Shown here: positions 1 to 61,224 of the stretch, in pieces
Position numbering within the stretch: position 1 is the stretch's first letter
How the letters are laid out: each line of letters starts with the position of its first letter
Source: Psammoneis japonica
Lineage: Eukaryota
Reading direction: 5' to 3'
Length of the DNA stretch: 64,000 nt
Assembly: GCA_008632985.1 (NCBI GenBank)
Contig: QPGO01000098.1
Span: forward strand, 124,001 to 188,000
Made by a program: the position numbers and the translations under genes
Notes under the pieces: generated by a model
Told to the model about the DNA's origin: nothing
Database searches by the model: none
Seen by the model: the letters and a program-made list of their open reading frames with translations, nothing else

Positions 1-25
1 GAATGTATTCAGAGGGTCCAAAGAT

Positions 26-236
26 GGGGGAAGTCTCCAGCCAGCGCTGCTGGCTGAAAAAAGTCTGCTCGTCAGTGCGTTTGGGGGTTTTGCAAGTATG
101 ACAATTTTTACGTATGCAAAAGAAGACGAGTCTGTCCAGCGTTCACCAAAACCCCCTAACGCACAGATTGACAGACTCATTCAGTGCAATTTCTACACAA
201 AATTCTTCAGCCAGCAGCTGGCTGGAGACTTCCCCC
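26..236. mobile_element. MITE-like foldback element
   Basis: GGGGGAAGTCTCCAGCCAGC at 26-45 is the reverse complement of 217-236. A second, imperfect inner inverted pair lies at ~63-92 / ~147-176. No coding capacity and no clear TSD. Confidence 0.6.
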
Positions 237-898
237 AAAGAATCATCACAAGAATACAGTCCTGCACTTGCAGGCACCGGTGCGGGCCCTGGGAGCTGCT
301 GGAAAAAACGATTGTGCCACTGCCGGCACAAGCCTTGATGACGCAGCCATGCGGCCCTGCACGTTGGGCACAGACAGACGCCACCCGCAGCAGCACATGC
401 CATGCCATGCAATGCACTGCATTGCCACAGATGCCCAACACCAAAATCACAGTCTTGATGTGAAAAAAGCCTTCCATGACACCAGTGTTGTCTGACTTCA
501 TTTCTAAAAGCATTCGCTGGTCCACTCGCGCCAGCAAATTTCAAGATTCGCTCGCTCGCTCGCTCGAAGCAAGAGCCCAGTGACAGCCAAAAGCACAAAA
601 GCCCAAAACAATCAAGTCAGGTCCCACGGTCGGACACACCCAGCATGAGAAATCGCAGACAAGCCGGTGGTCAGGCAGATGATGATGCAGCCAGTGTGGT
701 GCTTGGGGCAACAAGCAGGCGCAACAATTGCGCCATCGGCGCACCCTCAAATTTCCCGCCATGTGGCACGCGACAGTCTCCAAGTCGGTTCTCGGTTCGC
801 TTTCCTCTGCTTGCTCGTGAGAGCATTGCAGTGACGATGAGATTGAGAAACATTCGTGGCAACAATGCTTCCACCAAAAAATGCTTTTTGCTGTTGTT

Positions 899-1871
899 TC
901 AACCATCAAAATGCTCGACATCAAATGGTGGGCAGCCCATCATGAGGGCCAACTGTGTGATGTTGGCCACGGCATGAAACACATGGCAATGTGTTTCCTT
1001 TGCATGGCATCATCTTTTCTGAAGCATTCCAAAGTGCTTGGGCCATCCATTGACAGCCTCATGCCTTGCCCTTGCTGTTGTTTTCATGGCCTCGTCTGCA
1101 TTTCTTGGGCCGGATGGTGTCAAGCTGCACTGGCAGCCGTCGCTGTGGCCACCGTTGGCCAGACACATCTTGCCATCTTCAAGCTCTTCAATGATCCATT
1201 TGCGAGCAATGCTCAGATCCAGCAACCCAGCTGGGTGTGGTCCATTGACCCAAACAATCCACCCTGTTTGAGTGCATGCTCCAATTTCACACCGCAGCCC
1301 AGCACTGTGGAATTTGTGGGAGAACCCTGTTGGATCGAACGGCAATGGCTCACAGATTCTGAAATCAGCGCCATCGAGTGTCACCAAACAAGTGCTGCCG
1401 TTATCACCAATGAAGCGGTCTTCCCAGTGAATCTAAAAGAAGGTGTCAGCTCACTTGTTTCATGCACATGAGCTTGTCTGGAATGGCGCGCACCAAATCC
1501 AACTGTCCAACAAGTTGAATGCTGACCCAAACCCATTTTCTCAGCGTGTCTTCATGAATTTTGTTACAGATTCTGGCAACGACTGTCTCAGATTCATGCA
1601 ATTTGAGAAAGCAAAGGGTGCACAGCAGGTGAATGGGCAAAAATCCTGGTGGCATTTTTCCGTCGTCTTCCAGAAGCCCCCACAACTCAGATGCTGCTTC
1701 TTGTGGGGTGCAGAAGCATGATGTGAAGCGACAGTTCCACACTGCAGGTGAGCCTTTTTGCTTCTGAATGACAGTCTGTGCCAAGCACTCTGTGGCCTCT
1801 TTGGGTGGATGCATGATTGGTGGTTGCTGGTGCACACAGCCAATCAAGCACTGTTTTAGACTTTTTTCCAT
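899..1871 (-). pseudogene. DDE_Tnp_4 (PIF/Harbinger-type) transposase relic
   Basis: Motifs HLLCTLCFLKLHESE..TLRKWVW, VTLDGADFRICEP..FSHKF..GLRCEIG..GWIVWVNGP, ANGGH (DxGY-like) and RARHEAVNG. Positions expected to be Tyr read Cys or His. Probable intron near 1450. Ends approximate. Confidence 0.75.
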
Positions 1872-2715
1872 TGGACCGTGTGTGCCACCTGCTGTTCCAG
1901 TTGTTTGTTGAGAGTTGTGCTTGTCATCTTGGGCGCAGTTTGGGTTCTCATTTGGAGAGGCCTTTCGTGAGATTCCGTCGTGTGTGACGAAAACACGAAA
2001 AAAATGCGATTCGGGTGCGGTTTCGGAATGGCGACTTCGAAACGAACGCCAAAGGCAAGTTTGGGTGTCCTCATCTCAACCGGAACCGGTGCACTGACGG
2101 CTCCAAGGCATGCTCTTGGCTCAACTAACACAGCAGCAGAGTTGCAACATGTGACACAGCATTTTAATCCCATGATCCATTGATGGCGGGGCTTCAAAGA
2201 AACGCATTTTTCTGCAAATCGAAATGAAAACGCCTTTTCATGGATGAAGAGCACACGTAAATGTGCCACTGAAAAGATGGAATGAACTTGCACACCAAAG
2301 TTCACTGTCAGTGCAATTGTTTTATCACAAGCTACAGCCATGTTTGAGCCAATCATTCCCATGTTGAGACGGCCCAAAGTCATCGTTCTGGAGCCGGAAA
2401 TCGTTTTGTGTGTGATTTGCGAACGATTTTAGTGCGGTCTCGGAACGTTTTTCGGGTGGACTTGAGGGAATCTAGGGCCCCCCACAATGTCAAGAGGCCC
2501 TTTCTCACTTTTGGCGGTTGGGATTAATTTTGGCGGTTGGGGTTTTTCAGATTTGAAAAGAGCAGCATCCCGCAAGAAGCAGTGAGGTGGGTTGGTCGTG
2601 ACCCATTCAAAAATGGGGTTCTCATTGCTGCCCGTCAATGCGAACGCGGATCTTGACGCCTCTCGACTTTGCACCATCCATCCTGTCATAAAAAAGAGAA
2701 AACAAAAGAAACAAC

Positions 2716-3891
2716 ATGCCCAAACTCAATCAACGAACCAAATCGGTTCTTGACACAGAGGCCGCCAGTCCCCTTGTTCGTCCACAGTGGTGCAAGGGAT
2801 CCGCCGCCTGCAAAGTCCTGAAGGAGATGTTGATGGAGGGCAAGATGATCCCTGGCGCGATGCCAAAAGAGATCCAGCAGATGCGCGCAGAGTTCATGCA
2901 CTGTCCACTGGACAGATTCCGCACTGGCTTGTGCAGGCTCAAAGACGAAACCGGGTTCAATCTTCGTCGTGTGATGAATGCCAGCAATGAGAACCCTGAC
3001 GGTGAGTGTTGATTGTTGATTGTGTTCCTGCATGAATGTGTGACAATTGGAAGTGACGTCACATCATTGCTGATGCTTGCATTTTCATTTTGACCGCGCG
3101 CTGCATGCACTGTTGTTGTTCTCGTCGTGCATTCACCAGACACCGATGATTCCGATGACAAGCAGCTGTTCTCCGGCGGCCCAGACAGCACTCGTCAGAC
3201 GAATGCATCGGCTCCAACTCCCACCAACAACAATGATGCCGCTGGCATCATGAATGGAGCTGGTGTTGCTCTTGTGGTGGAGGGACGTGGTGGTGGGCAA
3301 GGAGGAGGTTGGAAGAGCTTCAAGCCCATGGTCTTGCAAGCCACTCACAAGGACTCTGTCACCAAGACCAATCACATCGTGTTGCTTGTTGTGGCTCCAT
3401 CTGGTGTTTGCACCACGGACCTTTCTGGCATTCAGCTGTCTGTTGTGGGCAATGGAATGATGCTCAGTTGCCTCTCCCAATGGCCTCAGCACTCCATGGA
3501 CATGGATGCTCTCCACACAGTTCTCCTTTCTGAAGTTTCTGCTGAAGGGGGCGGCCACGGTGGCAATGATGAACTGCATGATGTGCACAAGTGCTTTGAA
3601 GCTCTTTCGGATGAGCTGGCTTCAATGAGGCAGTCTGACTCTGAGGTCCTGTCTTCCACGGCCATCACTCCCTTGCCAATCCAGGTCTCTAGGAAAATCA
3701 ACAAGGTCCATTTGTTGGATGGGCGTGGTGGGTCCAGGATCATTCATGTGGACCTCAAGTCAGAAGATTCAACATGCTGTGCCATGGAGAATCCAAAAGT
3801 CAAGTTGATTGATGCTGCAGGCGGCGGTCTTGGACTCATTGGTGACAATCAGGAGCCTTCATGTTGGCGGATGGGATGCACATGCATTTGA
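2716..3891 (+). pseudogene. Accessory (second) ORF of the Harbinger-like element, two exons
   Basis: ORFs 2716-3012 and 3127-3891 lie inside the TIRs, divergent from the transposase. GTGAGT donor at 3002 and candidate acceptor near 3139. No Tyr in either translation. Confidence 0.5.
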
Positions 3892-4140
3892 CTCAACACA
3901 CAGATTGGGACCCAGGATTGTTGGCAACTGACTGGCATGAGAAAATGCTGCTTTAGACAACAGTCTTAGTGCAACTAGTTGTTTGTGTGAAACACACAAC
4001 TCAGCTCAATCTTTGGCTTGTGCTTCGTCGGCATGTGGTGCCGGCACGGCAACATGCAGTCGTCGTCTGCTCATGTTTTTCATCGAAAAAACGCGCAAAA
4101 CGATGCAAGACGTTTTTTCCAGCAGCTCCCTGTGCACTTG

Positions 4141-4458
4141 CTAAGAATTGCTGAACAATTGCGCGATTCACGTGCCCGAAGGTCGAACATCGTTGCCCGA
4201 AGCAACATTCTACCTTCGCGCAGATGTCCACCCTGCATGGCACATGGTGTTGAAATTCTCATTGCAGTCGCATGAGTCATCGCGGGAATTTCATCAAATG
4301 ACCTCGTGGTGCTGTGATGCGCGATCTACACAAATCGGACATTCTCGAATGCTGGCGCATTTTCTATGGTCTCTACGTGCGTGAAGCTTGAATTTTGTGC
4401 CCGAAGCAACAATCGTCGTTCGGGCACATGAGCCGCGCAATTGTTCAGCGATTCGCAG
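4141..4458. mobile_element. Tc1/mariner-type MITE, TpA-mutated copy
   Basis: Imperfect ~40-bp TIRs (..GCTGAACAATTGCGCG..CGCGCAATTGTTCAGC..). Colinear with 29349-29666. Flanked by TG...TG where the other copy has TA...TA. Confidence 0.85.
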
Positions 4459-6512
4459 TGTGGAGCCCGATGAGGAGGGTTCGGCCCCGCCGAACCCAAT
4501 GAGAAGGGTCCAAGCAACAAGGTGGATGAGACCAACAAGGTGGTTTGCACAGTGGCAAGAACAACCCCAGCGAGGAGGGTGGATGACGAGGAGGGCTTTA
4601 GCCCGACAAGAAGGCCACACGACAAGCTGTGGGTCGTTCTCGCCATTGTGCAACCCAACGAGAAGGTCGAACCGAGGCGCGTTGAGTGCACACGGGAGTG
4701 CACACAGGGTCCCCTGCTGCAAGGATTTCACACATGTGATTTGACCGTTGCTGCAACCACTTGGGGAGCACTTTCATGTGCAAGACTGAAGCACCAAAGC
4801 ACCACAAAAGAGAACTTTTGCGCTGCAGGTTTGCTTGTTGGCAACGGTTTTTGGCGCCGACTGGCAGTCGCGAAATCATTCAAAATTGTCAACATTGCAC
4901 ACAATGTCACAATGAATTAAAAGTCATGCACACATTGATCTCGGCTTCTAAAACCATTGGCATGATCAACATTTAAAAACATTGGCGGGGTTGATTCAAA
5001 CAGACCACGCAGAATTGCACATGCTGGTGCAGTTTAACGGCAGAATCCTTGCAGTCTGCAGAGAGACAGCAAGGTTCTGCTTGCAACCCTTCTACACGAT
5101 TTTATGCTGAGGCACACTTGTGCACGTGCACTTTGCACCGAGAAATTTTGTGTGACTCTGAACGGTGTGTGGTCGAGTTGATGGCTGACAATTTTTCCAA
5201 GCGGCCGATCGACAACCACCACTCCCTCTGACAATGGCACTTTTGGCTGATTTGACCGGTGCGACACCACCTCCTGACCCCCCCTCCTTGCTTGCTGGTG
5301 TTGTGCTCCATTGGATCGTGCCATGTGAGCAAGCCCTGGCTGTAGAATGGGTCAGAATGACTCAAAATGTGGTGAGCTCTGATTCTCGTGGAATCGCATG
5401 CCTTTTTCCCCGTTCTCGTTCACAATGGCGCTCACCTTGAGCTTCCTTGCCCCACATCTTGATGTGCAGGACTCAAAGATTGGGGCATCTGGGTCCGTGG
5501 GTCAACACCGTCACTGTCACCATTTTTTGCTCCGTCCCCATTCTTCCGTGCCGCTCCACCACGGCACTTCTTCTCTCCCCGGTCCATGCCATCCCACCAT
5601 GCACTGCCTCCATTCTCCAAGCTGCTGCGGCAATCCCAAGCACCGACTTTCTGCCATTGCTCATGCCGATTTGCCACCTGCTTTTGTCGTCCTGCTCCGT
5701 GGAACCACCAGACTGCCTCTCTTCCATCTGTCCTTCCTGGCCACCGCTGACGATCCAGGCACCCCAAGTTTTGATCCCAATGGTGAGTTTTCATCAGTCG
5801 TTTGCCTGTTGTTGCATTGCATTTGCAGAAAAGTGTGTTCTCACCTCCTTGTGTTGTTCCATGTCACCGCAGATGTGGTCATTTTTCAGGCGCTGGTGCC
5901 ATGCTTCTCTGTGCAAGTTTTTGTGCATGCCAATGTTGTCTTGCTTTGTTCTTTTCATTGAAGACATGGTGCTGGCTCAAACAGATCCATTCTCTCTTTT
6001 GCGCCCTCTTGCAACATTGTTGGATTGCTGTGCTTGCATCTCTCTCCGGCACTTGCATCACCATCAGTCTCTTTGCTTGCATCATCTCTTCTCCACACTC
6101 ATTTCCCCTGTCAATTGCACGTGCATAATTTCTGCATAAATGGCTCGCACACAGAGTGACAAAACACCACCAAATTGCACAGTGACGGCTGTCAATGGTT
6201 TTTAGAATTGCTTGAGCTCACCCACACTCGAGCAGTGGGGGAGTCCTGCCACGCCGGCATGGATGCGGTGACAGAGTGAAATGACACATTGTCCTTGGGC
6301 ATCATCTCCCACCGGTGCAAACTCCGTGAACAACACATCATTGGAATCCTCATGACATGAGGTTTCCCAATCAATGGCCTCAACTCTTCAACCACTCACT
6401 TGAGGATTTGTGACGTGTCATGCACTTTTACAATGACACAATGCACACGGCACACAAAAATGTCATGTGGTGCAGAATCTGCGCAAAGTGTGCCATGTGG
6501 ATTTACTTGTTG

Positions 6513-6834
6513 GGAGCAAATCTCCACCGGCGGAGATTTGCTCCAAGGGTGTGGCATTGTTGCTCTGTTTGTGACAGCAACTCATGATGACCTGCATTGT
6601 CAAAGGTTGAGATTTGGCTCCTCTCTGTCCACAGATGCAGCTTGCAAAAAAAAACCAGTGTCAAAAGTCAATGTTGAACTTTCAAAATTACAAAAAGGGT
6701 TCCCCCAGATTTTTGGCAAATGTGTGGTCCAAAACAAAAATCGCGTGAACAAAATGTCACACATGTGTCTGAAAATTCTTCGTGTGCTGTGTTTGTGATG
6801 CAAGCAAGCAAATCTCCACCTGCGGAGATTTGCT
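6513..6834. repeat. Pair of near-identical hairpins
   Basis: GGAGCAAATCTCC-accggc-GGAGATTTGCTCC (6513-6544) and AGCAAATCTCC-acctgc-GGAGATTTGCT (6807-6834). Confidence 0.7.
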
Positions 6835-7713
6835 CAAGTCCGGTGGTTGAAGGGTCAAGCAGTTGGAACGGAATTTGCGATGGACCATTTTGTGTGGAAG
6901 ATGACAGACAAAAAATGTGAGAATTGGGGTGCACGGAAGATTTCCACCATGCTTCTCCCACACCAATTTAACACTTAACGCCAATTGGAAACAAGCACCA
7001 CATCATGTGGTGTTTCAAAAAATTTGAACACCACATGTGGTGTTTCGATTTTTTGTTTGGCAATCATGTCCAATTGAATCAGGTTTGAGACCCAAATGAC
7101 TGCATGAACAAATTCTCTGCACTCGAAAACATGCACTTCCACTCTTCAATCATCTCCATGTGACCTTTGGTTGTTGAGTTTCCGGCAAAACTGCTTCCAC
7201 CATGACGGTCCCAACTGCATCACCCGATGAGGTGGAATGTTCCCTCCCACGACCTCCCTCTCCTGCCGGGATGAACAGACAACAGACAAACATTGCTGAC
7301 ATGTTGACAGGCAGCATTGATGTTCCCGATTCACCCTGTGCTTTTGAGGAACAATTCAACAAATTTCAGCAAATTTGAGCAATGTTGACCCCAAAGCAGT
7401 TGTGCGCCCGCTGCCAGCCAAGAAGTCCAGGAATTGATTTTCTCACACCAAGAAGAAGCCAACTGGAAATGCTGAGTCATTTGCAAAGCCTGAGCACCAA
7501 GAGTCATGCTCCACCAAGTGCTTTGATGCAGTGCAGATTGAGGGTTCCATGCGCCCGAGTCACGGTGCCAGAATTTGACGTTCCAAAACACTCCAGTCAG
7601 TCTGTGGTGAGCAGTGGTCATTGGTTCATCTTCTTGGGGATGCTTGATGATTCGACATTTTTATTTGAAATGCTGAATTGGCACACTGGCTCTTCTCTGC
7701 AGGTTTCCATCAT

Positions 7714-8114
7714 GTGTGGGCATGCAGCAGTTTATGCCGCAGAGACAGAAACAGCAAAACAGACAACTTGGGAGGTGCGAGTTGACCAGTCACTAAATTG
7801 TGAGAACAAAAACTGCTCTGCTCGACAACCAACAAGAATTTGCAGGAAACAAGAAGTGACCCGTGTTTGCACTGAACTCAACACAGATGCACATGTTGCA
7901 AAGACTTGTCAAGAACAAGAAGTTCTTGATTGCATGAAGAAGAACAGAAGTGAGGCTCAACTCTTGACTTGAATCCCAGACCTCTGATCTCATTCATTTC
8001 TCAATCTGTGATTGGGTGAGTCGTTGATGGTGGTTGATGGCTGTTTCTGAGTGGTCATTGTCGCACGCAGGACTTGATGGCATGATGACACATGAACATG
8101 TGTGTGTTCCCACA
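7714..8114 (-). repeat. 3' LTR of Copia copy 1 (low-coordinate end approximate, possibly truncated)
   Basis: Aligns by eye to 13792-14198 and begins TG on - right after the PPT. Confidence 0.8.
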
Positions 8115-8141
8115 CTCCCTCATGCCAAAATGTCTGAGTTG

Positions 8142-11100
8142 TTGCCAGCCCTGCACTGACAGGCGATGGCAGATGAACAACGCCAGGCCCGACATTTTCA
8201 TCAGGAAGTTGGCCTGTTGGAGTTTGGTGCCAACAGCCTCAATCAGGAGACATCCATTGGCCACTTCAGATTGGAAGTGATGGCAAATGTTGTTGACATG
8301 GTGCATGGCGCATTTGTGGACGCATCTTGGGCACCTTTGCGATTTCAAGTGTGGCCGAGTTGTCCTCGAACAGTTTGCAGCAAACGGTTGGTGTGGTTGC
8401 CACAGGGCAGAAGTTCTTGTTCACCTCCTCAAGGAGGTGTGTGGAAGCTTTGACATGCCTGGTGGCAGCCGACAGGGCCAAGTGTTCACTCTCACTGCTG
8501 CTGAGAGCAAACTGCTGAGTCTGCAACTTGGATGACCAGCAGAGAGGAGCCCCTCCATGCTTGACAACACAGCCACTGCGAGACTTTGCCGTGTTGGGGT
8601 CCTCCGCCGCGATCGTTTTGTCCCAGTTGCCACAGAAGTCGGCGTCCACGTAGCACTCAAAGCTCTTGGTGCCATCTGGAGGGACCTGAATGTGGTGACC
8701 CTTGTCACGAGTCAGCAACAGGTGCCGACCGAGGTGCTTGAGGGCTGCGCCATGAGACTTCTTTGGATTGGCGGTGAAGCGAGCCAGTTGGTGAGTCGTG
8801 TGCGCGACATCCGGGTGAGTGGACTTCTCAAGGAAGTTGACTTTGCCCACAACCGATCGGCAGTCGAAATCACAGTCAAAAGGTTTGCCGTCAAAGTCAG
8901 GCCCAATGAGCCTGGCAGAGAGGGCTGGAAGCTCCCTGGTGGTCACCACTTTCTTTGGTGTTCCATCCTCATTGACAAGTCCGAGATCAACAAGGATGCT
9001 GTTGATCAGGTGAGGCTGGGCCAAGTGATGTCGATCCTTCTCCCTCTGAATCTTGACTCCAAGGCATTCGTCAATGGTTCCTTCGTCCTCCACATCGAAC
9101 ATGGTTTGCATCAACTTGACAACCTTGTCAATGTTTGCAGCAGACTCTTTGTCAAAGACAAGACAATCATCTGTGTAGACTAGCAGGACTGTGGTTCCTC
9201 CATGGAAGACGCATTCATCGAACTCCGATGGAACAAAACCGAGTTGCAACAAACTGGCGCGGAGATGTTTGCACCAGGTTCGTCCACTGTCATGTCCGCC
9301 GTGTGTGTTCTTCTCAATGCGGAGACAGAATTTGTTGTGATCAATGCCAGGAAATGTCACTCCCTCAGGTGGCTCCATGAAGGTCGGTCGTGGAATGTCC
9401 GCTTGTGGATGCGCAAGGACGAAATCAACTTGTCTTGAATGCCATCCATGCACAACACACAGATGCAGAAACAGATGGATCATTGTCCAGGACAAAGCTG
9501 GTGCGTGAGTCTGGTCACAGTGCTTTCCGGGAATCTGCTTGTGCCCTCCAAGATTAAGTCGACTCTTCCACTTGTAGACTTCTCGTGTGTGAATTCGGCA
9601 CTTGCGCTTCATTGACCACACTGCTGGCAGGATCGTCTCATTGTCGGGTGCATCGGATTTCTCGCATGGTTCCCAGTGATCACGAGCAGCATGGTCTTGA
9701 ATTTCCTTCACCATGGCCTCCTTGAACTGCTCTGCATCTGGCTGCTTCATGGCTTTGTGCGTGCACATGGTGTCAGGATCAGCAGAGGCCTTCAAGAAGC
9801 AAACGATGGGATCATCAAGATCTGCCTGAAAATCTTGTTCTGAGTGCATGTCTTGGTCCAGCACCTCGAAGTCGGCTCTGCATGAGACAATGTTGGCCTG
9901 CTGTTGCAGTTCCGACTCGATCATGCGCTGTGTTGGCTGAACAGTGTGTCCAGACCGCATCGTTTGCACTGCTGGTGGAGGCTCCGGTTCGGGCACTTCG
10001 GACTCTGGCAGTGATTCTGGGGTCTCAGAGGCTCCCTCATTTGTTGCATTTGGCGTGTCTTCTTCGCCTTCCACCAATTCATCCGGTGCGGTCGCCTCCA
10101 CAGGCATTTCGGTGGGTTCGGCACCATGGTGTGCATTTGACGTGGTTCGCGTGGTCTTGATGCGTGCCGCCATTCCGGTCTTCTTGGTGATTCGTGGTTG
10201 AAGTTTTGAGTCTTGGAGAAAGTGGCAGATCTGCTGCCAGCGGGACTCAGTCGCGCGTTGGGATTTGAGCGTTTCGAACAAATTGTCAAACCTCATGTGA
10301 CATTGTGGTGAGACCATCCCTGTGGCGAGATTTGGAACCAGAGCAACTGAACGAGAGTGTCTTGGCAATGGTCCAAGGCACAGACCGACTCGAGAGCGAG
10401 GGTCCCACTTGGGTGCAGTGTTGTTGGCTTGCAATTTGCTGTTTAAAACGTAGACTGGTGCAGGCGAATGGATGAAAGTGCCAAATTTTGGGTTTCACTG
10501 GCACTTTTGAGAAAAGTTCGATCGGCGACACTTGCTGACCAGTTCTTGGCACACAGTCACGCACAGCATTTGCGCATCGAATGGTGCAGGGCCACAGAGC
10601 CACCTCCACTGCTGCTGGCCATCGATGCTCAGCACATGTGAGTTGTGTGCGAGCTGAATCTTGAAGGTCACGGATTCTTTTCTCGCAGGTGCCATTTTGA
10701 AAGTGTGCATTGACTCCACAAAAGGACATCATTTGGTTTGCATCCTTCACTGCCTTGAGGTGTGCATTGTCTGCGAAACGGCCATTGTTGGCATGGCAGT
10801 GAAGAATGTGAACTCCGAGTGATCGGGAGTGTGCTTCAAACGCGTGCTTCGCTGCTGCCATCTCAGCTCCAGTCAATGTTGTTTGCAAATGGACAAAAGA
10901 GAAGTCACTGTGGTGGTCAACGAATGCAGCAGCGCATCTGTGGCGTTTTGTTGTTGCCCAGCCTTTCAATTGGCCCATCAGACCTGGTGTTGTCGCATCG
11001 AGTTGGTCCACCGACACGCGCTGACCGGGCTCAGCAGCTTTGAACATTTTGTTTTGTTTGTTGTCCCCTTTGACTTTCCAAGGTGCTTTTGTCGCTTTTC

Positions 11101-12505: not shown

Positions 12506-12633
12506 GACAGTCCTTGCTCAAGTGCTGTCCCCAGCACTTGTGGAAGTTGCAACACTTCCATTCTTCTCCCTCAAAGGTCTTCACTTTGGGTTCTCCGGGC
12601 TGAGGTTCGACGCCGTGCCAAGTCCATTTTCCT

Positions 12634-13706: not shown

Positions 13707-13791
13707 TGTCGTCGTTTCGGCAACCACAACGTTGGGCTCTGGTTTCTGCAACAATTTTGAACTGAGTCAGGTCTCTGTAGCACAGAGGAAG

Positions 13792-49860: not shown

Positions 49861-50333
49861 TAGAAAGCGGTGCAATGGGGGCACGTCATTTGGTGATTTT
49901 AGCAGTGGAGTGCTTCTAATTGACAACGATGGGGCTTGTGACAATTAAATCTCTCGAAATGTTGCAACAGGGAAAAAGATGCCGAGACTGCTGTTGCAGC
50001 TCTGTCACTCAGCCAGCGAGATAGAATTTTGAATTTTTGTGGATGGAATGAAGAAGAATCATCAGAGCGGGCGGATCGAATGGAATGATGATGATGTGTG
50101 AGCATCACCGGCAGGCATGTGTGATTGAATGTGGGGCCCCACCGGTGTGATTGAATGAAGCATCGCTAGAGCCCCAAAAGCAACACCGCCCAAAGTTGGC
50201 GGAAATCGGTTTGCGAGGTTTGAGGTCGTCAAAACCAGACTGACAATGCACAGCGGCGAGGATGATTTCATGACCAAAGCCAGACAAAGACAGCTCACAA
50301 TGTCCACATTGTCGGATCAGTTGTTGTTGTCTG

Positions 50334-51011
50334 TTGTTGTCGCAACTCACTTCTGCCATGGGCTGCTGGAACTTTTCGTTTTGGGACAACGACGAGTGTG
50401 TCGAGTTTCTTCTGGTGCTCTTTCAGCACCTTGGCCTGTCAACCATCCTGCGCAAGGAAGATGTCGGCAAGGGCGCGCGCCACTGCACAGTGGCAATGGT
50501 CGTTCCTCCCAATCAATCGGGCAAACCTTTGATTGTCCGTCACGACGGTGAGGAGTTGGAAGAGACACACCATCTGCACCACTCCGTCACAGCTGGTGAC
50601 CTTGAAAGCACCAAGCGGAAGATCCTCTCTTTGAGGAACGCCTTCTTGCCGACTTGGCGAGTCACGAGAAGCATCTCAAGAAGCTCAGGCTCAAGGCTGA
50701 GCATCTCTGACTCTCATCCACATGCATGTTGGATTGCTGTGGATGTGGTCAAGCTCGACGAGTTGGCTCAAGTCTTTGACATGCGCGGCAATGAGGGAAC
50801 ACATTCGATTGATGGGCACCTCAAGAACTGCACGGGGGCGACGGATGCGAACCTCGAACAGCTTCGCAACGAGCAGGCTCCCGCGATTCGTGCCGGCATT
50901 CTAGCGTGCAAGAGCATGATCTTGTCCAACGACACGCTCGAATCCATGTCCTTGGCACATTGGTCCTCGGCAGTCCATGGAGATGTGGATGAGTGGTGTG
51001 CTCCCTCATGA
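50334..51011 (+). pseudogene. Unknown protein relic, TpA-mutated
   Basis: 225-codon frame with protein-like composition and no Tyr. No family recognised. Confidence 0.35.
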
Positions 51012-52453
51012 ATTGAAGCCTGAAGATGTCTGGTGCGGAACTCCGCAGCTGGCCGTTTTCAAGGTTGATGGCAAGTCAATGTGATGCACAACACGACATC
51101 ACGATGCTCATCTCGGTGGTTGGTGCACACACTAACAACAAAGCTTTTGTTTCAGGAACCGGTGACAACTCTGATGATTCGGCATCTGAATCGTCCAACT
51201 GGGGCGTGCGACAGCCTGCTGAGTCTGGTCTCATGTGTGCATGTGGTGTGATGGGTGTGGAGGTGTCTCTCACCTTGCTCTTTGCAGCTGGCACCACTGC
51301 TGCCACTCATGTTGAGCACGTACGATACGAATGGAGTTTCAATCGCTGTCGTTTGTTTCTAGCTGTGATGGCAAAGCATGCCTAAACATGATAGAAATCG
51401 TCTCTCATTCAACTTCCGCATGCATTTTTTCTCTCTTGGCATCCATCGTTGTACTCTCTTTGCTTCTTTCCTCTTTTTTTGCCCCACTTTGCGGTCCTTT
51501 CGTCATTTCGTTCTTTTCGGACTTTTGAGTTCGAGTCGTCATCTGCGCTTGCCAAATCCTGGTCAGCGCCACGTCCTCTGACTGATTCCACGATTTTGCC
51601 CGTGTTTATGGATAAAATTGGAAAGGAGGGGGGCAAGTAGCTAGTGAAGTGTATTTGGTTGACGAGATGATAGAGAACTTCCAAAAACGCGTCCACAGGC
51701 GACAAGACAATGAGTGAAGGTCGCCAATGCGACACGATCGAAGAGAGAACGATACCTTAGCTACTCTCTATAGCTAGAAAGAGTCGATCCACTCTCTAGA
51801 GTGACTGCTGCTCTCCAGCCACCACTCCACTCTACTGCAGAGCATTTCACAGTATCCCATCTGCTGGGGACAAGCCCCTGACGCAGTGGCAAAGCGATGG
51901 AAGAAGGACCAAAAAGTCAAGAACGATGCGACAACTGAAACTGAAAACGCAGCTTGTTACATTCAGTGCCACAGTCAGGAACAAACCATTGAAAGCTCCG
52001 ACAGTCATGGAATTGCTAGATTGTTTTGCTCCTGCGAGAATGAAACCTGTGACGTGTCCCCCCCAGACTCTGCTCTAACATGGCAACCTTCTGCTTTGTC
52101 CATTTGGTGCATTTTACCAACAGAGAGAGGCATTTTGCTCAACCTTGCCAACTTTGACGGGGGCTCTAATGATCCCTCAAAAGGCTTTGTGCTCTAGGAT
52201 GCCAGTGGAATGGGAAAGGTGGCGCTTTGCCAGTCTGTGAGGTGCAAAGCTGCAGTTTCTGCTAACACACAACCAAGCGACAATGGACACCCAACATTGG
52301 TTTAGGTTGGTTCCACATGTGGAACAACTGATGTGAACACTGTCAAACAAAAGTTGCAGATGCCAACACTCGCACCCACCAGCACCACTTGTGACGTGCT
52401 GAGATGACTCCAAGGCTCTACAACACAAACAAGTGCATTCTCAGAGATGATTC

Positions 52454-53359
52454 TCAAGAATGAAGACGCTTCAACAAGTGACGCGCCAATGAATGGACAG
52501 CATCATTTTTCCCTTCGCATTTAAGCTCGGCTGCGGCGGCTGCAACGCCTCCACCCTTTTTCGTGATTTCTGCCTTGGCTTGTTCACTGCAAAAGGACAG
52601 ATCAAGGAGGAAAACAAGTGCCTCTTCCTGGACATCTTCATCTTCAATGTGATTGTCCATGGCCGCAATCATGGGATCCACAGCGACCAACAGCTCAGCG
52701 GAAGAGGTTGGGAGTTCACATTGGGTGTCGTTAAGACAACTGATGGCGCACCCAAGCAAGACATGTGCAGCTCCATGGTTTCTGATGGCAGCCGCAATGA
52801 CGCCAATGCACCCGGCATCAAAAATTTTCTTTGCATCTTTGATTGCGAGATTAAAAAGAGCAGTGCAGCCACGTTCCTGCAACTTTCCTTTCTTCAGAAA
52901 CTGCTTCATTGCGTGCACAATGGCATCAGAAGCATCAGCCGCAATGAATTTCCTGCTGAATTGGCAACCATCTCAATCCCCACTGGTGCAGACACAAATG
53001 AGTCTGCATGCTTTTGATTTGATGTCACACGACTCTGCCGTGTTCAATGCATGCACAAGATTTTTGCAAATGTCAGTGCCTTTGAACTCTGCAAGGATGT
53101 CGTCACAGGGCTCAAAGACATCATGGATCTCTTCTTCGTCTTGTTTCAGAAGAACAAGAGTGCAATCAATGGTTTTTTCCACGCTGCTTTTGTCGAGCAG
53201 CTTTTCCACCATGGCGACTTTTGTTCATGGTGGTTCAATGACAGAATCATCATCATCATCCTCCTCCTCGCTTTCACCAACAACGCGATGACGTGCGTGT
53301 GGCGGTGCCTCCTCCTCATCTGTGGCATCCACAGTGGCTCTCTTCTTCGAACTTGACAT
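52454..53359 (-). pseudogene. Armadillo/HEAT-like repeat protein pseudogene
   Basis: IVHAMKQF..LQERGCTALFNLA..IFDAGCIGVIAAAIRNH and AAMDNHIEDEDVQEEAL. In-frame TGA at 52973. No Tyr. Confidence 0.65.
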
Positions 53360-54185
53360 GCTGCTGCCACGATTGACTCTCTAAAGAATGGTTTGATTGT
53401 GCAATGATTGCACCCGGCACCAGTCGATCAATGTCAACAATGGCCAATGCTCTCATGCAGCAACAATGACAGCGGACAGCAGACAGTGGGCGCGATCACA
53501 CAAGCGAATTTGGGAATCATCGGCGACTGTGATTCACGCACTTTGATTTGTCCGACTCGATCGACGACTTCGAAAGGCAACGACGCGACGCACGACACGA
53601 CGCAATGACGCAACGCAACAAAGCATGATGCGATAGAAGATGGTCTCTGCCCACTAGAGACCTGCTCTCTAGAGAGCAGCTAGCTCTTGATGGAGGTCCG
53701 TCAACTTTGTGCTAAGAGCAACAAAGTGTCAATGGGGAACAATGCGAGATGAGTGAAGCCCGTAAGTCGGCCAGCTGCCGACTGCCGACAATTTAGCCAC
53801 CAGGTTCTCATGCCAAGGTCTGGCAGCAGCCATTCTCAAATTCTACCGGCAGAGGCTCCAGGCAGTGCGCGGTTTAAAAAAGAGCTTCCTCCCAGTCTGC
53901 TCATGTTCTGTTGGCCTCAACGATGGCAGTTTGAATTCGATCATCATGAATCATGACATTGATTTTTATTGGTTGTAATTTCCATGTGGCACTAGCCTCT
54001 CAATGTGTGCACAACAAAAACAAATCATACAGGCAAGTAAACAGCGACCAATTTTAACCATGACGCACTGTCGGCTTGCTCGAAAACATGCACAATGACG
54101 TCACACGCGCGCGACCTGTCATGCCTCATTTTCTCCTTTGTGGTGTGTGGGTCTCTTCTTGGTGTCCTCTACCTCATCATCACTT

Positions 54186-57100
54186 TTAAAGAAGACAGCC
54201 CACAGCAACAGTCACAACACCAAGAGCAACATTTCCTGCCAAACTGGAAATGGCATTCATGCATGCAGTGCTTGGTTGCCCGACAATCTTGCCACAATGC
54301 CACTCCCAACAGCTGGATTGGCATGACAAGAGATTGCAAATCACCAAAGTTCTCTTCCAAGGCCCATTCTGAGACTGTTGAACCGCCCCCTCGTCTGGTG
54401 TGGCCTCACTTCCATCAAAGAGAGCTCTTCCATTGTAGAGTCGGGCGCCAGAACTGTCCGTGCCGGTCATCATGAGCTCGACATCCTGGAGATTGGAAAA
54501 GTTGTCACCCATTTGATCCTTGAGAAAGGCTTCGGCAGTTTTGGTCAACTCCTCCTCACTGTCGACCGTGCCGTCCACCAGCAAACCAAACTCAGCAAGC
54601 ACCCTTCGTCCAAATCACCCTCCATGGCGACATCCCTCAACATGACGCCACTTCCAATGGCTGGATTTGCATCAATGAGCGCCTGAAGACCCGCTTGATC
54701 ATCTTTCAACGCCTTGCGTTGTGACTCGAGGACGACTGCCTCAGTCGGGACGTTCTCCGTTCCTTCCAGAATGGCTTTGCCACTGTGCTGGCACGCTCCA
54801 GAATCATCAGTGCCGGTCATCATCAGCTCGACGTCTCTGAGATTGGAAAAGTCCTTGCCCATTTCTTCCTTCAAGAATGCCGCGGTGGTTGACGTCAACT
54901 CTTCCTCACTGTTGACTGTGCCTTCCAAAAGCAAACCAAAGTCGGCAAGAGCAACCTCAGACGTTTCCACATCGTCCTCAAAGGCAAAGCCCTGCAACGT
55001 CAGATTGCTTCCGACAGCAGAATTTGCGTTAATGAGCTCTTGTAAACTGGCTTGGTTGTCTTTGAGAGCCTTCCTTTGAGATTCGAGCACTTCTGTCTGT
55101 GGCAGTGCAGGGACGGCTCCGTCGAAGATGGCCTTTCCACTGCATTGACGCGTGCCCGAATCATCGGTGCCTGTCATCATCAGATCAACACCTTCGAGAC
55201 TGGGCAGGTCTTTGCTCATTTCTTGCATCAAGAATGCGGCAGCAGTTGAAGTCAACTCCTCCTCGCTGATGACATCACCATCCAACTGCATCGCAAAGTC
55301 AGCAAGATCAATCTCGACGCCCTTGATCGCAGCGCCCGTCACCGTGATGCCGCTTCCGATTGCAGAATTGGCAGCGATGCTCTCCTGCAATCCAGATGCA
55401 TCTTCCAAAGCTCTGCTCTGGGAGCCGAGGACATCTGCTTTGGCTGGAGGAACAACGGATCATCAAAAGCAGCCTTTGCACTGCATTGACGTGCGCCAGC
55501 CTCGTCGGCACCTGTCATCATGAGCTCGACATCTTCGAGGCTCGAAAAGTCAGCGCCCATCTTGTCCTGCAAGAACGCAGCAGCAGCAGAGGCTGGCTCT
55601 TCCTCACTGTCGACTTCGCCGTCCAATTGCAGGGCAAACTCAGCAAGATCAATCTCAACACCCTTGATGCCTGCATCTTGGACCGCAATGCCACTTCCGA
55701 CAGCAGCATCAGCAGCAATGCTCTCCTGCGACCCAGATGCATCAGCCAACGCTCTGTTCTGAGAGTCGAGGACTTCCGATTCCGTTGGTGGGGTTGCAGA
55801 TCCCTCGAACAGAGCCTTTCCGCTGCATTGACGGGCACCAGAATCATCGGTGCCCATGCTCATGAGATCAATGTCCTGGAGGGTTGAAAAGTCAGCACCC
55901 ATCTTTTCCTTCAAAAACGCCGCGGCAGTGGAAGTCAACTCCTCTTCACTCTCAACATTGCCGTCCAATTGCAATGCAAAGTCGCAGAGCGATTTCAACA
56001 GGCGGTTTGTCTCCTTCCAGGGCTGCACCCTCTACCGCAACACCATCTCCAATGGCAGAATTGGCCTCAATCGCAGCCTGCAATCTGGCCATATCTTCTG
56101 AAGCTTTCCTTTGAGATTCGAGAAGGACAGTGTCCATCGGCACAGAAGCTGATCCTTCAAACAGAGCCTTTCCGCTGCATTGACGGGCACCAGAATCATC
56201 GGTGCCCATGCTCATGAGCTCGATGTCCTGGAGGGTTGAAAAGTCAGCAACCATCTTTTCTTTCAGAAATGCCGCGGCAGTGGAAGTCAACTCATCCTCA
56301 CTGTCAACATTGCCATCCAATTGCATTGTAAAGTTGGCGAGAGCGAGTTCAACAGGCAGTTCGTCTCCTTCAAGAGATGCACCCTCTACCACAATGCCAT
56401 CCCCAACAGCAGAATTGGCATCAATGGCTGCTTGCAGTCCGGCTTCGTCTTGTGGAGCGTTCCTCTGAGACTCGAGGACTTCGCCTTCCGCAGGAGCAGC
56501 ATCGGATCCGGCAAAAACAGCTTTTCCGCTGTGCTCTTGTGCACCAGAATCGTCCATTCCGGTCGTCGTCAACTGAACATCGTCGAGGTTTGAAAAGTCA
56601 GCGCCCATCTTTTCTTTCAAGAACTCTGCGGTGGTGGAAGTCAGCTCGTCTTCGCTGTCGACATCCCCATCAAGCTGCAGGGCAAAGTCAGTGAGCGCAA
56701 CTTCAACCGGAGCTTCCTCTCCTTCAAGGGCGATGCCCTCTACCGCAACACCATCTCCAATCGCAGAATTGCCGTCAATGGCTTCCTGTGACCCAGATTC
56801 GTCTTGCAGAGCATTCCTCTGAGACTCAAGGACTTCAGCTTCCGCAGGGGCAGCATCGGATCCAGCAAAAACTGCGTTTCCGCCGTACAATCGTGCACCA
56901 GAGTCGTCCGTTCCGGTCGAAGTCAACTCAACATCTTCGAGGTTCGAAAAGTCCGCGCCCATCTTTTCTTTCAAGAACTCAGCGGTGGTGTTGGTCAACT
57001 CCTCTTTGCTGTCGACCTCGCCATCAAGCTGCAGGGCAAAGTTAGACAGAGCAACTTCAACCGGAGGTTCGTCTCCCTCAAGGGCTCACCCTCTACAGCA

Positions 57101-60100
57101 ATGCCATCTCCAATGGCAGAATTGGCATCGATGGCTGCTTGCAATCCAGCTTCGTCGTCCAGTGCATTCCTCTGAGACTCGAGGACTTCATCTTCCCAGG
57201 AGCAGCATCAGATCCAGCAAAAAAGGCTTTTCCGCTGCACTCGCGTGCACCAGAATCGTCCGTTCCGGTCGTCGTCAACTCAATGTCCTCGAGGTTCGAA
57301 AAGTCAGCGCCCATCTTTTCCTTCAAAAACGCCGCAGCAGTGGAAGCCAACTCCTCTTCACTGTCGACCTCGCCTCCAAGCTGGAGAGCAAAGTCAGACA
57401 GAGCAACTTCGACCGTAGTTTCGTCTCCCTCAAGGGCGACACCCTCTACCGCAATTCCATCTCCAATCGCCAAATTGGCGTCAATGGCTTCCTGTGAACC
57501 AGATTCGTCTTGTGGGGCGTTCCTCTGAGACTCGAGGACTTTGGCTTCCGTAGGAGCAGCATCGGATCCAGCAAAAACAGCTTTCCCGCTGCATTCACGT
57601 GCACCAGAATCGTTCGTTCCAGTCGTCATCAACTCAACATCCTCGAGGTTCGAAAAGTCAGCACGGTGGTGTTGGTCAACTCCTCTTCGCTGCCGACATC
57701 GCCATCAAGCTTCAGGGAAAAGTTGGCGAGAGCAACTTCAACAGTGGGTTCGTCTCCCTCAAGGGCGACACCCTCTACAGCAATGCCATCTCCAATCGAC
57801 GAATTGGCATCAATGGCTTCCTGCAAACCAGATTCGTCTTGTGGGGCGTTCCTCTGAGACTCGAGGACTTCGGCTTCCATGGGAGCAGCATCAGATCCGG
57901 CAAAAATGGCTTTTCCGCTGCACTCTCATGCACCAGAATCGTCTGTTCCGGTCGTCGTCAACTCAACATCGTCGAGGTTTGAAAAGTCAGCGCCCATCTT
58001 TTCTTTCAAGAACTCTGCAGTGGTGGAGGTCAACTCATCCTCCCTGTCAACATCGCCGTCAAGCTGCAGGGAAAAGTTGGCGAGAGCAACTTCAACAGGA
58101 GGTTCGTCTCCCTCAAGGGCAACACCCTCTACAGCAATGCCATCTCCAATCGCCGAATTGGCGTCAATGGCTTCCTGCAAACCAGATTCGTCTTGTGGGG
58201 CGTTCCTCTGAGACTCGAGGACTTCGGCTTCCGCAGGAGCAGCATCGGATCCAGCAAAAACAGCTTTTCCGTTGTGCTCTCGTGCACCAGAAATCGTCCG
58301 TTCCGGTCGCCGTCAACTCAACATTGTCGAGGTTTGAAAAGTCAGCACCCATCTTTTCTTTCAAGAACTCTGCGGTGGTGGAGGTCAACTCATCCTCACT
58401 GTCAACATTGCCGTCAAGCCGCAGGGAAAAGTCGGCGAGTGCAACTTCAACCGGAGGTTCGTCTCCCTCAAGGGTGACACCCTCTACCGTGATGCCATCT
58501 CCAATCGCCGAATTGGCGTCAATGGCTTCCTGTGACCCAGACTCATCTTGTGGAGCATTCCTCTGAGACTCCACGACTTTGTCTTCCGTAGGAGCAGCAT
58601 CGGATCCGGCAAAAATGGCTTTTCCGCTGTGCTCTCATGCACCAGAGTCGTCCGTTCCGGTCGCAGTCAACTCAACATTCTCGAGGTTCGAAAAGTCAGC
58701 GCCCATCTTTTCTTTCAAGAAGTCTGCGGTGGTGGAGGTCAACTCCTCTTCGCTGTTGACATCGCCGTCAAGCTGCAGGGCAAAGTTTGCAAGATCAACT
58801 TCAACCAGAGGTTCGTCTCCCTCAAGGGCTGCACCCTCCACCGCAATGCCATCTCCAATCGCCGAATTGCCAACAATGGCTTCCTGCAACCCAGATTCGT
58901 CTTGTAGAGCGTTCCTCTGAGACTCGAGGACTTCGTCTTCTGTGGGGCAGCATTGGATCCAGCAAAAATTGCTTGTCCGCTGCAGCCACGTGCACCAGAA
59001 TCGTCCGTTCCGGTCGTCGTCAACTCAACATCATCGAGGTTTGAAAAGTCAGCGCCCATCTTTTCTTTCAAGAACTCGGCGGTGGTGGAAGTCAACTCCT
59101 CTTTGCTGTTGACATCGCCGTCAAGCTGCAGGGCAAAGTCAGTGAGCGCAACTTCAACCGGAGGTTCGTCTCCTTCAAGGGCGACACCCTCTGCCGCAAC
59201 TCCATTTCCAATGGCAGAATTTTCGTCAATCGCTGCTTGCAGCCCGGCTTTGTCTTGCAGAGCGGCCCTCTGAGACTTGAGGACTTCATCTTCCGCAGGA
59301 TCAGCATCGGATCCGGCAAAAACAGCTTTTCTGCTGCGCTCACGTGCACCAGAATCATCCGTTCCGGTCACCGTCAACTCAACATCCTGGAGGTTCAAAA
59401 AGTCAGCACTCATCTTTTCCCTCAAAAAATCAGCCGTGGTTGAAGTCAACTCATCTTCACTGTCGACAGTGCCTCCAAGTTGAAGGGCAAAATTTGCCAA
59501 ATCAATTTCAGCGGCAGGAGGCGCAGCAGTTGGAGCCGACGCAGGAGCGTTGGCAGCATCTTGAGAGACACAACAATCCACTCTCGTGGGGTCAGCACCA
59601 GAGCATCCTGGGAACTGCATGGCGAGAACCAACACAATGACAAAAGTGAGAAAGGCAGAGGGGTGTTGGCAGAGGTGATTGGGCTGACACACGACATGAC
59701 GCGCCAGATCTGCACACACACCACTTTTGAGTCTCCGGGATTCTGGCGAATGCGTTGAAGGCCGTTGAGGCAATCGTCATCTGTGTCGCAGTCACCTGTG
59801 AAAGGAGAGCAAAAGGAGTTGGCATGCGTCAGCACTCAGAACTTCACAGAGGTTTTCGCCAGAGCGAGTGGCCTTGCGACTGCGGATGACAGACGCGTTC
59901 CAGCCCTGGTTGGGACTCCGTGTGACATTGGGCCCGTAGAATTCTGTGTGCGAGCTCCGCAGTGCGAGAATTTAATTGATGGATGTGTTTGTCTTCAACA
60001 TCAAATAAATGGCCAAGTTTGTGGTGCAATTATGCCTCTTGCCACTCGACGTTTTTGCAAATGCACCTGCCCTGCGCGATTCTTAAGACATCAAAGAATC

Positions 60101-60514
60101 GCGCTGCAACAAAAAAATGTCAAAAGTTGTTGGACGGATCGCTCAACAAGTGCACCATAAAATGACACAAAATGTCAAAAAAATCACGTAGAAATCTACG
60201 TGCGCGACATACGACATGATTCAAAAAACTGTCGATGTCACAGTTCAGCAGTGCGAGGTCCCACCCAGACCTGGAGCGCGTCGACAACCACATGTTTTAA
60301 GATGCCACACCTTGACAAAGACCACACCGATCGGTGGGATCACATTCTCGACCAAGATGATCGAGGGGAGGAGGCGGCGCAGGGGCTGGGGTCTCGTCAT
60401 TCTTCAATTGTCGACGGGCCAAGCTGGGTTGAACTCCACGCAGCCGCTCAGCCTTGGTGAAAACAGCAAGCTCAAAAGCACTGTCAGGAGAGAAATCCTG
60501 GAAGAGCGAGCCAT
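54186..60514 (-). pseudogene. Secreted frustulin-domain protein with ~15 acidic ~118-aa tandem repeats and a hydrophobic C-terminus; frameshifted and TpA-mutated
   Basis: Exon 1 (60514-60311) has a signal-like MARSSRISLLTVLLSL, a frameshift, then ..CDPTDRCGLCQ. It splices to GDCDTDDDCLNGLQ (from 59795) and FPGCSGADPTRVDCC, which together match the frustulin acidic cysteine-rich motif. A Pro/Ala linker, the repeats and a terminal ALGVVTVAVGCLL follow. Confidence 0.75.
54250..59510 (-). repeat. Coding tandem array, ~354-bp unit, ~15 copies
   Basis: GAGACTCGAGGACT-like anchor recurs at ~54720, 55078, 56113, 56468, 56821, 57174, 57527, 57856, 58210, 58565, 58920 and 59273. One unit has a short deletion near 57660. 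Confidence 0.92.
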
Positions 60515-61224
60515 GATCTTATAGCACACGAAGAACTCTCGGGCTTATGGGGTATACGGTACACTCTGTTGTGTCGACTTCGAGACGGTGCGTACGCACT
60601 GTAGTGTCTTTCGCTGCTCTTTCACTTGAAAAAGTTGTGAAAAGAACGCGTTGACACTCTCGAAGATCCGGCACTGGACAAGATTTTGGCACGACCCATT
60701 ATGTATATCTAACGATATATATACATCTAATCGTAAACTGTTCGTAGAGAGCGAGTATCAAATTGTCCAAAATTGTATACAAATCCTGTTTTGTTTAAAT
60801 TGTCTATCGCGATTTTAGGACTATTTTTTATATTATAATTAATGGACTTTAATATATCCGAAAAGGCTGTAGTGCTTATCTAATACAAGCATTTAGCTCT
60901 GGATGTGTAATTTGACGTTGTCGACGTCGCTGGTGGCGCATGCGACAACAGCAACATACTAAGTACATAACAAACATACTGTACGGTACACTGTAACATA
61001 CCGGGCGGTAGGGCCCTACTAACATACGCATGCTGACAACCCGAAGCCGTCCCTACCTCCTCTCCCGGCCCGCCCAGTCGGACGAAGCACGACTCTACCA
61101 AAAGCACTCCGTCACGACTCAATCAAGAATTAGTCAAAATTGAAAAAATTCCAGTTGGGAGTGTGAAAATTCGGCCTGTCATGATATTACAGTGCTTTGT
61201 TCACTGCCAAAGCATAGATCAAGA

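Follow-up and report, generated by a model that had tools for sequence, protein, structure and literature searches.

What has emptied long stretches of a diatom chromosome of the dinucleotide TpA, and spared the genes beside them? The question is raised by a 64,000-base window of Psammoneis japonica DNA (positions 124,001 to 188,000 of contig QPGO01000098.1), in which tracts rich in transposon remains are almost devoid of TA and intact genes are not. A regionally targeted process in transposon-rich chromatin, converting TpA to TpG or CpA (A:T to G:C, at TpA only), accounts for the observations with a probability of about 0.78, a figure that is joint with its regional targeting; that a targeted TpA mutator of some kind is real is very probable. 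An earlier reading, made from the letters of the window (the sequence-only reading), had proposed an undescribed 'reverse-RIP of repeats', after the repeat-induced point mutation (RIP) of fungi. The analysis below upholds the mutation that it described but neither its trigger nor its novelty.

Over the whole window, which contains 637 TA in total, the observed/expected ratio (o/e) is 0.156 for TA, 1.61 for CA, 1.55 for TG and 0.54 for CG. A two-state segmentation of the window by TA, which defines the division into tracts and islands used here, yields four TA-poor tracts with 3.3-5.0 TA per kb (201-25000, 29701-51300, 52201-53600 and 54201-59900), two TA-normal islands with 43 per kb (25001-29700 and 59901-64000), and two mini-islands with 28-30 per kb (51301-52200 and 53601-54200). 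There are 207 TA in 53,278 bp of tract (3.9 per kb), compared with 364 in 8,128 bp of island (45 per kb). TA o/e is at most 0.126 in every 2-kb tract window, and throughout the contiguous tracts depletion of TpA (o/e 0.01-0.13) is coupled to enrichment of CpA and TpG (o/e 1.3-2.0). Even in the islands TA is mildly under-represented (o/e 0.6-0.7). Relative to islands, the tracts have changed per kb by -41.2 for TA, -26.7 for CG, +29.0 for CA and +39.5 for TG, so that the combined loss of TA and CG (-67.9 per kb) approximately equals the combined gain of TG and CA (+68.5 per kb). No depletion comparable in degree with that of TA affects AT or AA/TT in the tracts, and G+C content is 0.498 in tracts and 0.481 in islands. 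Stop trinucleotides, counted on both strands, follow the same pattern: TAA and TAG fall from 20.0 and 19.4 per kb in islands to 3.1 and 2.5 in tracts, whereas TGA rises from 38.0 to 48.6.

The limits of the depletion are sharp at the island that carries two leucine-rich repeat (LRR) receptor-like open reading frames (ORFs) and their flanks (25048..29874, minus strand; ORFs 25138-26748 and 26837-29296). On its left, positions 24058-25047 contain 1 TA whereas the adjoining 117 bases (25048-25164) contain 13, and the tract starts 90 bp past the LRR stop codon; on its right, the 1,739 bases of 29875-31613 contain zero TA. The sequence-only reading had described TA as common at about 25050-29700 and beyond 60520 and scarce in the transposon tracts, and the islands of the segmentation agree with this. 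Its single span of 1..60520 for the depletion stands less well: the depletion is real, but it is not uniform, since the span takes in the LRR island, both mini-islands and, at 59901-60519, an edge where the depletion is graded (TA o/e 0.26).

The direction of change was established from two degraded Copia copies of the CoDi-like type, copy 1 at 7714..12430 and copy 2 at 13793..18478, both on the minus strand and 81% identical. RVT_2 and gag_pre-integrase domains are recognizable in copy 1, the relatives of both copies are diatom CoDi-type elements, and TA and CpG o/e are 0.064 and 0.67 in copy 1 and 0.061 and 0.41 in copy 2. Homology to these elements and to the relatives of a DDT/WSD ORF in the right-hand island itself marks the DNA as that of a diatom. 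Alignment of 110 intact homologues to the two copies yielded 788 conserved columns, a column being conserved if at least 15 homologues were present with at least 70% agreement. Tyrosine is conserved in 42 of these columns, at which the copies now have 22 Cys (TGY), 11 His (CAY), 5 Tyr, 2 Phe, 1 Gln and 1 Leu; thus 33 of the 42 conserved TAY codons have become Cys or His. Other residues were retained in nearly every case (Pro 62/63, His 31/33, Trp 29/31, Glu 26/27, Asp 34/38), and among the 110 intact homologues Tyr is replaced by Cys or His in no more than 2 cells. Because the conserved Tyr codons were destroyed in the copies and the homologues keep Tyr, the ancestral elements must have had TA at these sites. 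Peptides that the sequence-only reading had cited as examples of such replacements were located on the minus strand: FDCDFDCRSVVG at 8845-8880, GLCLG at 10372-10386 and LAHPQA at 9400-9417, and GLRCEI in a transposase fragment at 1283-1300.

The substitutions are confined to TpA. At the second codon position, A>G occurred at 22 of 42 TpA sites, 0 of 52 ApA, 0 of 68 CpA and 0 of 65 GpA (P=2e-19), or 22/42 versus 0/185 for TpA and the other three contexts pooled. At the first codon position, T>C occurred at 11 of 42 TpA sites and 3 of 112 TpT, TpC and TpG sites (P=4e-5). The specificity also extends across codon borders: T precedes 7 of the 9 codon-initial A that became G, compared with 2 of the 85 that were retained. 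A TpA-specific and roughly strand-symmetric A:T to G:C change, acting in the tracts and not in the genes, had been claimed from the letters alone and is borne out. The result that the sequence-only reading had singled out as contrary to this claim, namely A>G no commoner at TpA than at ApA, CpA or GpA, did not occur.

A second, separable process, CpG to TpG or CpA as from deamination of 5-methylcytosine (5mC), operates in the same domain and is confined to it. In the Copia copies, 17 of the 60 conserved Arg columns now read His, Gln, Cys, Trp or stop, and 34 retain CGN; conserved CGN Arg codons have become CAN or TGN in 17 of 51 cases. These Arg changes are ordinary CpG decay. In Copia codons the rate of TA loss is 5.0 times the rate of CpG loss. 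The tracts at 18479-25000 and 38001-48000 are depleted in both dinucleotides (CpG o/e 0.08-0.12, TA o/e 0.035-0.041), and TA and CpG o/e are correlated across 24 tract windows (rho 0.70), as one would expect if both losses accumulate with time or with strength of silencing. The two are uncoupled in a tandem array within the tract at 54201..59900, where CpG is near normal (o/e 0.80) and TA o/e is 0.061. Five Copia loci from metagenomes (L060, L064, L066, L067 and L068) have CpG o/e of 0.24-0.35 and ordinary TA (0.59-0.63); CpG decay therefore proceeds in other organisms without loss of TpA, and the processes are separable there also.

Mutation of TpA acted in place, after duplication of the sequences concerned. 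Both Copia copies are mutated at 15 homologous Tyr columns; the outcome was the same at 8 of these and different (Cys versus His) at 7, about the split expected of independent mutations. Simple pairwise differences between the copies were rejected as a means of polarising the changes, being confounded by the fact that CpG and TpA ancestors both yield mixtures of TG and CA; the differences become informative because sites with TG in one copy and CA in the other number 130, in excess of the 76 expected under CpG decay alone (P=9e-9). Columns of the tandem array were set aside for the same reason, as they gave no clean direction. A direct duplication of about 622 bp with 95% identity (34243..35489, plus strand) has 7 such alternates where about 1 would be expected from CpG decay alone (P about 1e-4). 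The differences between the halves of this duplication fall almost entirely in the first approximately 370 aligned columns, and the last approximately 250 are nearly identical, as if part of it had been homogenised later. Long terminal repeats of the Copia copies, intended as an in-place clock, were sought as direct repeats of at least 60 bp within 7000-13800 and 13000-19500, and none was found.

Elements of different classes are hit alike. A degraded fragment of a Harbinger/PIF-type transposase (1013..1432, minus strand), whose homologues have the PF13359 (DDE_Tnp_4) domain, has lost both of its two invariant Tyr residues (GLRYE>GLRCE and GGY>GGH), and TA is as scarce in the tandem array and in unannotated inter-element DNA as it is in the Copia copies. 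Depletion runs unbroken over the borders of elements and ends sharply at the ends of genes. The clearest contrast is offered by two copies of a 314-bp element with terminal inverted repeats that resembles a miniature inverted-repeat transposable element (MITE): the copy within the TA-poor domain (4146..4459, plus strand) has 4 TA, whereas the copy on the promoter side of a gene at the edge of the LRR island (29354..29667, plus strand) has 18 (o/e 0.78). Where the island copy has its 18 TA, the in-domain copy reads TA at 3, TG at 5, CA at 6, CG at 1 and something else at 3. Position thus outweighs element family in deciding whether TA is lost.

Repetition, which the sequence-only reading took to be the trigger, is unsupported. 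The MITE family probably has many genomic copies: contig depth reaches about 3190 over the element, compared with about 30 nearby, and many paralogous contigs lie at 29354-29667. The promoter copy of this high-copy family keeps its TA and the in-domain copy lost them. Contigs built from exact words of a sequencing run (X1) accumulate on the Copia and MITE elements, and a single contig covers 21050-24950, which is depleted just as the repeats are. Contig depth is at most a hint and gives no copy number, and these observations do no more than hint that loss of TA is not triggered by present copy number. The genes of the islands look intact (two LRR, one ankyrin and one DDT/WSD). The ORFs of the LRR island have a TA o/e of 0.48-0.65 and its non-coding DNA 0.8-1.4, and in the ankyrin and DDT/WSD island (60520..64000) the non-coding DNA has 0.8-1.1. 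Contigs of a second run (X2, of a kind guessed to be DNA) cover 25149-29088 and the MITE and not the tracts, a pattern that has no bearing on expression.

Loss of TA also depends on bases beyond the dinucleotide. Retention of each TA-containing tetranucleotide, taken as its density per kb in tracts over that in islands, was lowest for ATAT (0.006), ATAC/GTAT (0.011), ATAG/CTAT (0.014), GTAC (0.028) and ATAA/TTAT (0.041), intermediate for GTAA/TTAC (0.108), CTAC/GTAG (0.128) and CTAG (0.185), and highest for CTAA/TTAG (0.254) and TTAA (0.323). Sites of the form R-T-A-Y (R, purine; Y, pyrimidine) were lost first or fastest. With duplicated sequence removed, 22 of the 334 flanks of residual TA have A at -1 or T at +1, compared with 206 of 728 in the islands. 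All five of the conserved Tyr codons that were retained are TCTAC. A model with the rate set by the base 3' to the target A on one strand fits the retention data, but was not adopted, as the polarised test of it gave a trend only (P=0.16).

Independent support comes from a partial form of the signature in environmental DNA. Among 79 environmental Copia loci, three from one microbial-mat metagenome, an unrelated assembly, are partly TpA-depleted Copia elements of an environmental eukaryote. In the first (contig L042, 1-6728), TA o/e is 0.09-0.37 and CpG o/e 0.91, and Cys or His has replaced 9 of 16 conserved Tyr; TA is closer to normal (o/e 0.49-0.73) up to about 1.5 kb into the contig, where the depletion begins, and its ranking of sequence contexts resembles that of the window (Spearman 0.70, P=0.025). 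In the other two (L027 and L050) 3 of 16 conserved Tyr are changed in each. The remaining 76 of the 79 loci have no clear signal.

The closest known process was described very recently in the chlorarachniophyte Bigelowiella natans. According to the preprint of Mettrop et al. (April 2026, bioRxiv 10.64898/2026.01.13.699255), 231 of 302 nuclear mutations in mutation-accumulation lines fell in two integrated viral regions; 230 of these 231 were A>G or T>C, all at TpA and at approximately 1000 times the background rate. The same source reports 124 TpA-poor clusters in the B. natans genome, with TpA-poor coding sequences enriched in reverse-transcriptase and DDE domains, and proposes an ADAT2-like deaminase as the enzyme. 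The sequence-only reading had called the signature undescribed; it has been described, with de novo mutations, in that preprint. No report of TpA-specific hypermutation in diatoms was found in the literature searched, which included passages of two papers on diatom transposons (PMC2806351 and bioRxiv 10.1101/2025.10.24.684338), and diatoms are mentioned 0 times in the main text of the B. natans preprint (bioRxiv 10.64898/2026.01.13.699255). The kind of process is thus already known, without mechanism, and the present window is a second and extreme case from another lineage of the Stramenopiles, Alveolates and Rhizaria (SAR).

As the preprint presents the B. natans process, the two cases share A:T to G:C mutation exclusively at TpA, with TG or CA resulting according to strand; clusters poor in TpA and rich in CpA and TpG; and restriction to delimited regions of foreign or selfish DNA beside normally mutating DNA. 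In the window the regions are delimited abruptly at 25048 and 29874, the genes and the non-coding DNA that flanks them being normal, and the targets are Copia, Harbinger and MITE sequences; transcriptionally silent DNA, single-copy DNA included, is the stated target in B. natans, and here silence is presumed. They differ in host (Rhizaria there, a diatom of the Stramenopiles here) and in degree: the active regions of B. natans are mild (Rho TpA 0.45 for the insert of a nucleocytoplasmic large DNA virus, and short clusters), whereas TA o/e in the window is 0.01-0.13 over approximately 53 kb. The evidence differs also, consisting there of de novo events in lines and here of the end state, from which a relative rate five times that of CpG decay is obtained. 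The main sections of the preprint state no context beyond TpA; the window has RTAY. The process here may be of the same kind as the hypermutation of silent viral inserts in B. natans, almost saturated in this case on transposons.

Fungal RIP resembles the present process in that irreversible transitions at one dinucleotide inactivate transposons and leave compositionally distinct domains beside intact genes. Its polarity is opposite, as far as the sources consulted describe it: C:G to T:A changes, mostly CpA to TpA, create TA and lower G+C content, whereas here TA is removed. RIP is triggered by duplication, whereas here a high-copy MITE at a promoter was spared and a tract under a single contig was hit, with the qualifications that the MITE is short and that contig depth is not copy number. 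Deamination of 5mC at CpG acts in the same tracts (CpG o/e down to 0.08) and feeds the same pool of TG and CA, but it cannot remove TA, was about five times slower here, and is uncoupled from TA loss in the tandem array.

The mechanism that we favour would have its target set by chromatin state, methylated or silent DNA, and not by copy number, leaving transcription units and promoters alone. A TadA/ADAT2-like enzyme, or another deaminase requiring a 5' T, would deaminate adenine in DNA to hypoxanthine, which pairs with C; TpA reads identically on the two strands, so that the outcome is TG or CA depending on the strand that is hit. Polynucleotide adenosine deaminases include TadA and ADAT2-3, which act on U33-A34 of tRNA, ADAR, which acts on double-stranded RNA, and the engineered TadA base editors, which act on DNA. 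The changes in the window resemble their activity in that A>I is read as G and in the strong preference for 5' T or U for which such enzymes are documented, to which the window adds a preference for a 3' pyrimidine (TAY). Their natural substrates are RNA, and a natural DNA activity targeted to chromatin is hypothetical. The motif of 5' T and 3' pyrimidine is compatible with a TadA/ADAT2-like DNA adenine deaminase, which is a candidate by motif alone, and attack by a deaminase on adenine, not on thymine, is a tentative proposal to which we give somewhat less than an even chance.

Thymine would be the base attacked if an oxidase of the TET/JBP type, or another enzyme, modified T in R-T-A with T>C as the consequence. 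A modified T such as 5-hydroxymethyluracil or 5-formyluracil would mispair with G or be mis-repaired, producing T>C. Here T>C matches A>G in its specificity for TpA (11/42 versus 3/112), and since T-A-Y is R-T-A on the other strand, all of the context results fit both readings equally. We nevertheless consider thymine attack, the principal rival, improbable: no positive evidence for it was found, the sole published proposal for the signature is adenine deamination, and the requirement for 5' T matches the U/T preference of adenosine deaminases given in the B. natans preprint (bioRxiv 10.64898/2026.01.13.699255). The same preference, which fits ADAR, speaks for another route, in which an ADAR-like activity that prefers 5' U would edit A to I in the transcripts of elements and the edits would enter the genome when those transcripts were reverse-transcribed and re-integrated, as does the fact that the best-polarised data come from Copia retroelements. 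Editing of RNA is very unlikely to be the explanation, however, because the depletion is just as strong in a DNA transposon fragment, in a MITE whose fate depends on position, in a tandem array and in non-coding tracts; because the depletion crosses element borders and stops at gene ends; and because both strands were hit within one element, with independent outcomes after duplication.

It is equally hard to credit that the signature is an error of sequencing, basecalling or assembly in which modified TA is misread, a possibility that the sequence-only reading had itself raised, although the platform of run X1 is unrecorded and the assembly may have been made from that very run. Contigs assembled from exact words of X1, whose longest record is 315 kb, reach 3.9 kb at a depth of about 30-34 and agree with the tracts throughout, at 0 differences (21050-24950 and 30056-31960 are instances). 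Such assembly suggests that the reads are accurate and that both strands agree, and noisy or strand-discordant calls would not be expected to assemble in this way. Paralogous copies, moreover, differ in outcome at one site, the changes are interspersed with decay of the usual kind (159 transversions separate the Copia copies, and there are stops), and the same signature occurs in the unrelated metagenome assembly. Nor is an untargeted process at all probable, whether GC-biased gene conversion, repair of the Pol-eta type (WA>WG), selection against TA or elements natively poor in TA. Any of these could lower TA somewhat, and TA is mildly low everywhere, islands included. Pol-eta-type repair, which the sequence-only reading had listed as a candidate mechanism, is contradicted by the absence of A>G at ApA (0/52, versus 22/42 at TpA). 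Gene conversion does not account for AT and AA/TT being far less depleted than TA, and natively TA-poor elements do not account for the destruction of conserved Tyr codons in elements whose ancestors had TA. Selection does not explain the sparing of the islands, since it is their non-coding DNA that keeps the highest TA.

Several points weigh against the proposal of a targeted TpA process as formulated here. Chromatin targeting and adenine deamination are what we infer from the pattern. The reads of run X1 carry the bases of the assembly but, given the doubts about the origin of the run, are not an independent replication. Independence of copy number depends on one 314-bp MITE and on contig pile-up, which is no measure of copy number. 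None of the 79 environmental Copia loci has TA o/e below 0.30, so saturation of the degree seen in the window is not shown to be common. Since the site is palindromic, A as the attacked base (T-A-Y) and T as the attacked base (R-T-A on the other strand) are indistinguishable; the Tyr outcomes, sorted by preceding base, lean to a 3'-pyrimidine rule for A as a trend only (P=0.16), and clustering of outcomes by strand is weak (54 runs versus 65.8 +/- 5.7, P=0.024). T at -2 or A at +2 is found in 177 of 334 flanks of residual TA versus 200 of 728 in the islands, an excess that is unexplained and is absent from contig L042.

If the proposal of a regionally targeted process holds, targeted A:T to G:C editing of DNA would be no peculiarity of a single chlorarachniophyte but a mode of genome defence also in the diatoms, a second major lineage of algae and an ecologically dominant one. 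Beyond the published case, the window adds a saturated end state, transposons of both classes, boundaries that hug transcription units, and the RTAY motif, which any candidate enzyme must reproduce; TpA loss and CpG decay also cover the same ground, a hint that methylated chromatin may be what guides the process. Base-editing research would have an interest in a natural, chromatin-targeted adenine deaminase of DNA, if there is one. A wider conjecture, which we regard as doubtful, is that diatoms and chlorarachniophytes share an old and perhaps SAR-wide arm of defence, in which a chromatin-guided DNA adenine deaminase erases TpA at R-T-A-Y in silenced or methylated DNA. Such an arm would be a functional mirror of RIP, independent of copy number and faster than 5mC decay, and would strip most TAA and TAG stops and Tyr codons from every transposon that it reached; the window would then be the first saturated end state and the first view of context, and contigs such as L042 would be the process in nature.

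Loss of TA also has consequences for annotation: TA-poor tracts yield spurious long ORFs, hide transposons from profile searches and mimic signatures of CpG decay. The window contains 59 stop-to-stop frames of at least 170 amino acids, and many long spurious ORFs are found in the tracts because TAA and TAG are nearly absent. A Pfam scan of another 40 long tract ORFs found no family above cut-off, and most such frames are probably open only through the missing TAA and TAG. A match to Pertussis_S1 in a frame at 12637-13872 (minus strand) scored 16.6 bits against a cut-off of 21.3 and was taken as noise, the frame probably being open by chance; a match to ARM_LRRK2 in a tract ORF (18.6 bits, sub-threshold) was likewise attributed to chance.

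With its edge refined to the LRR island, the left tract occupies 201..25047 (TA o/e 0.035-0.09, CpG o/e 0.08-0.67) and the middle tract 29875..51300 (TA o/e 0.04-0.10; CpG o/e 0.12 in 38001-48000), the latter containing a run of 7 N at 41901-41907 that is a small gap or a mask. To its right lie the mini-island at 51301..52200 (TA o/e 0.43), a TA-poor tract at 52201..53600 (0.077) and the mini-island at 53601..54200 (0.43); the ORF listing of the two mini-islands held no clue to their identity. The tandem array, at 54513-59518, consists of at least 14 units of 354 bp, each 65-90% identical to a reference unit. It has long open frames on both strands, probably open only through the near-absence of TAA and TAG, and three of these scanned with Pfam gave zero family. 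The right-hand island, at 60520..64000, encodes an ankyrin ORF (61144-62106, plus strand) and a DDT/WSD ORF (62479-63999, minus strand), and all relatives of the latter are diatom proteins, with identities of at most 54%.

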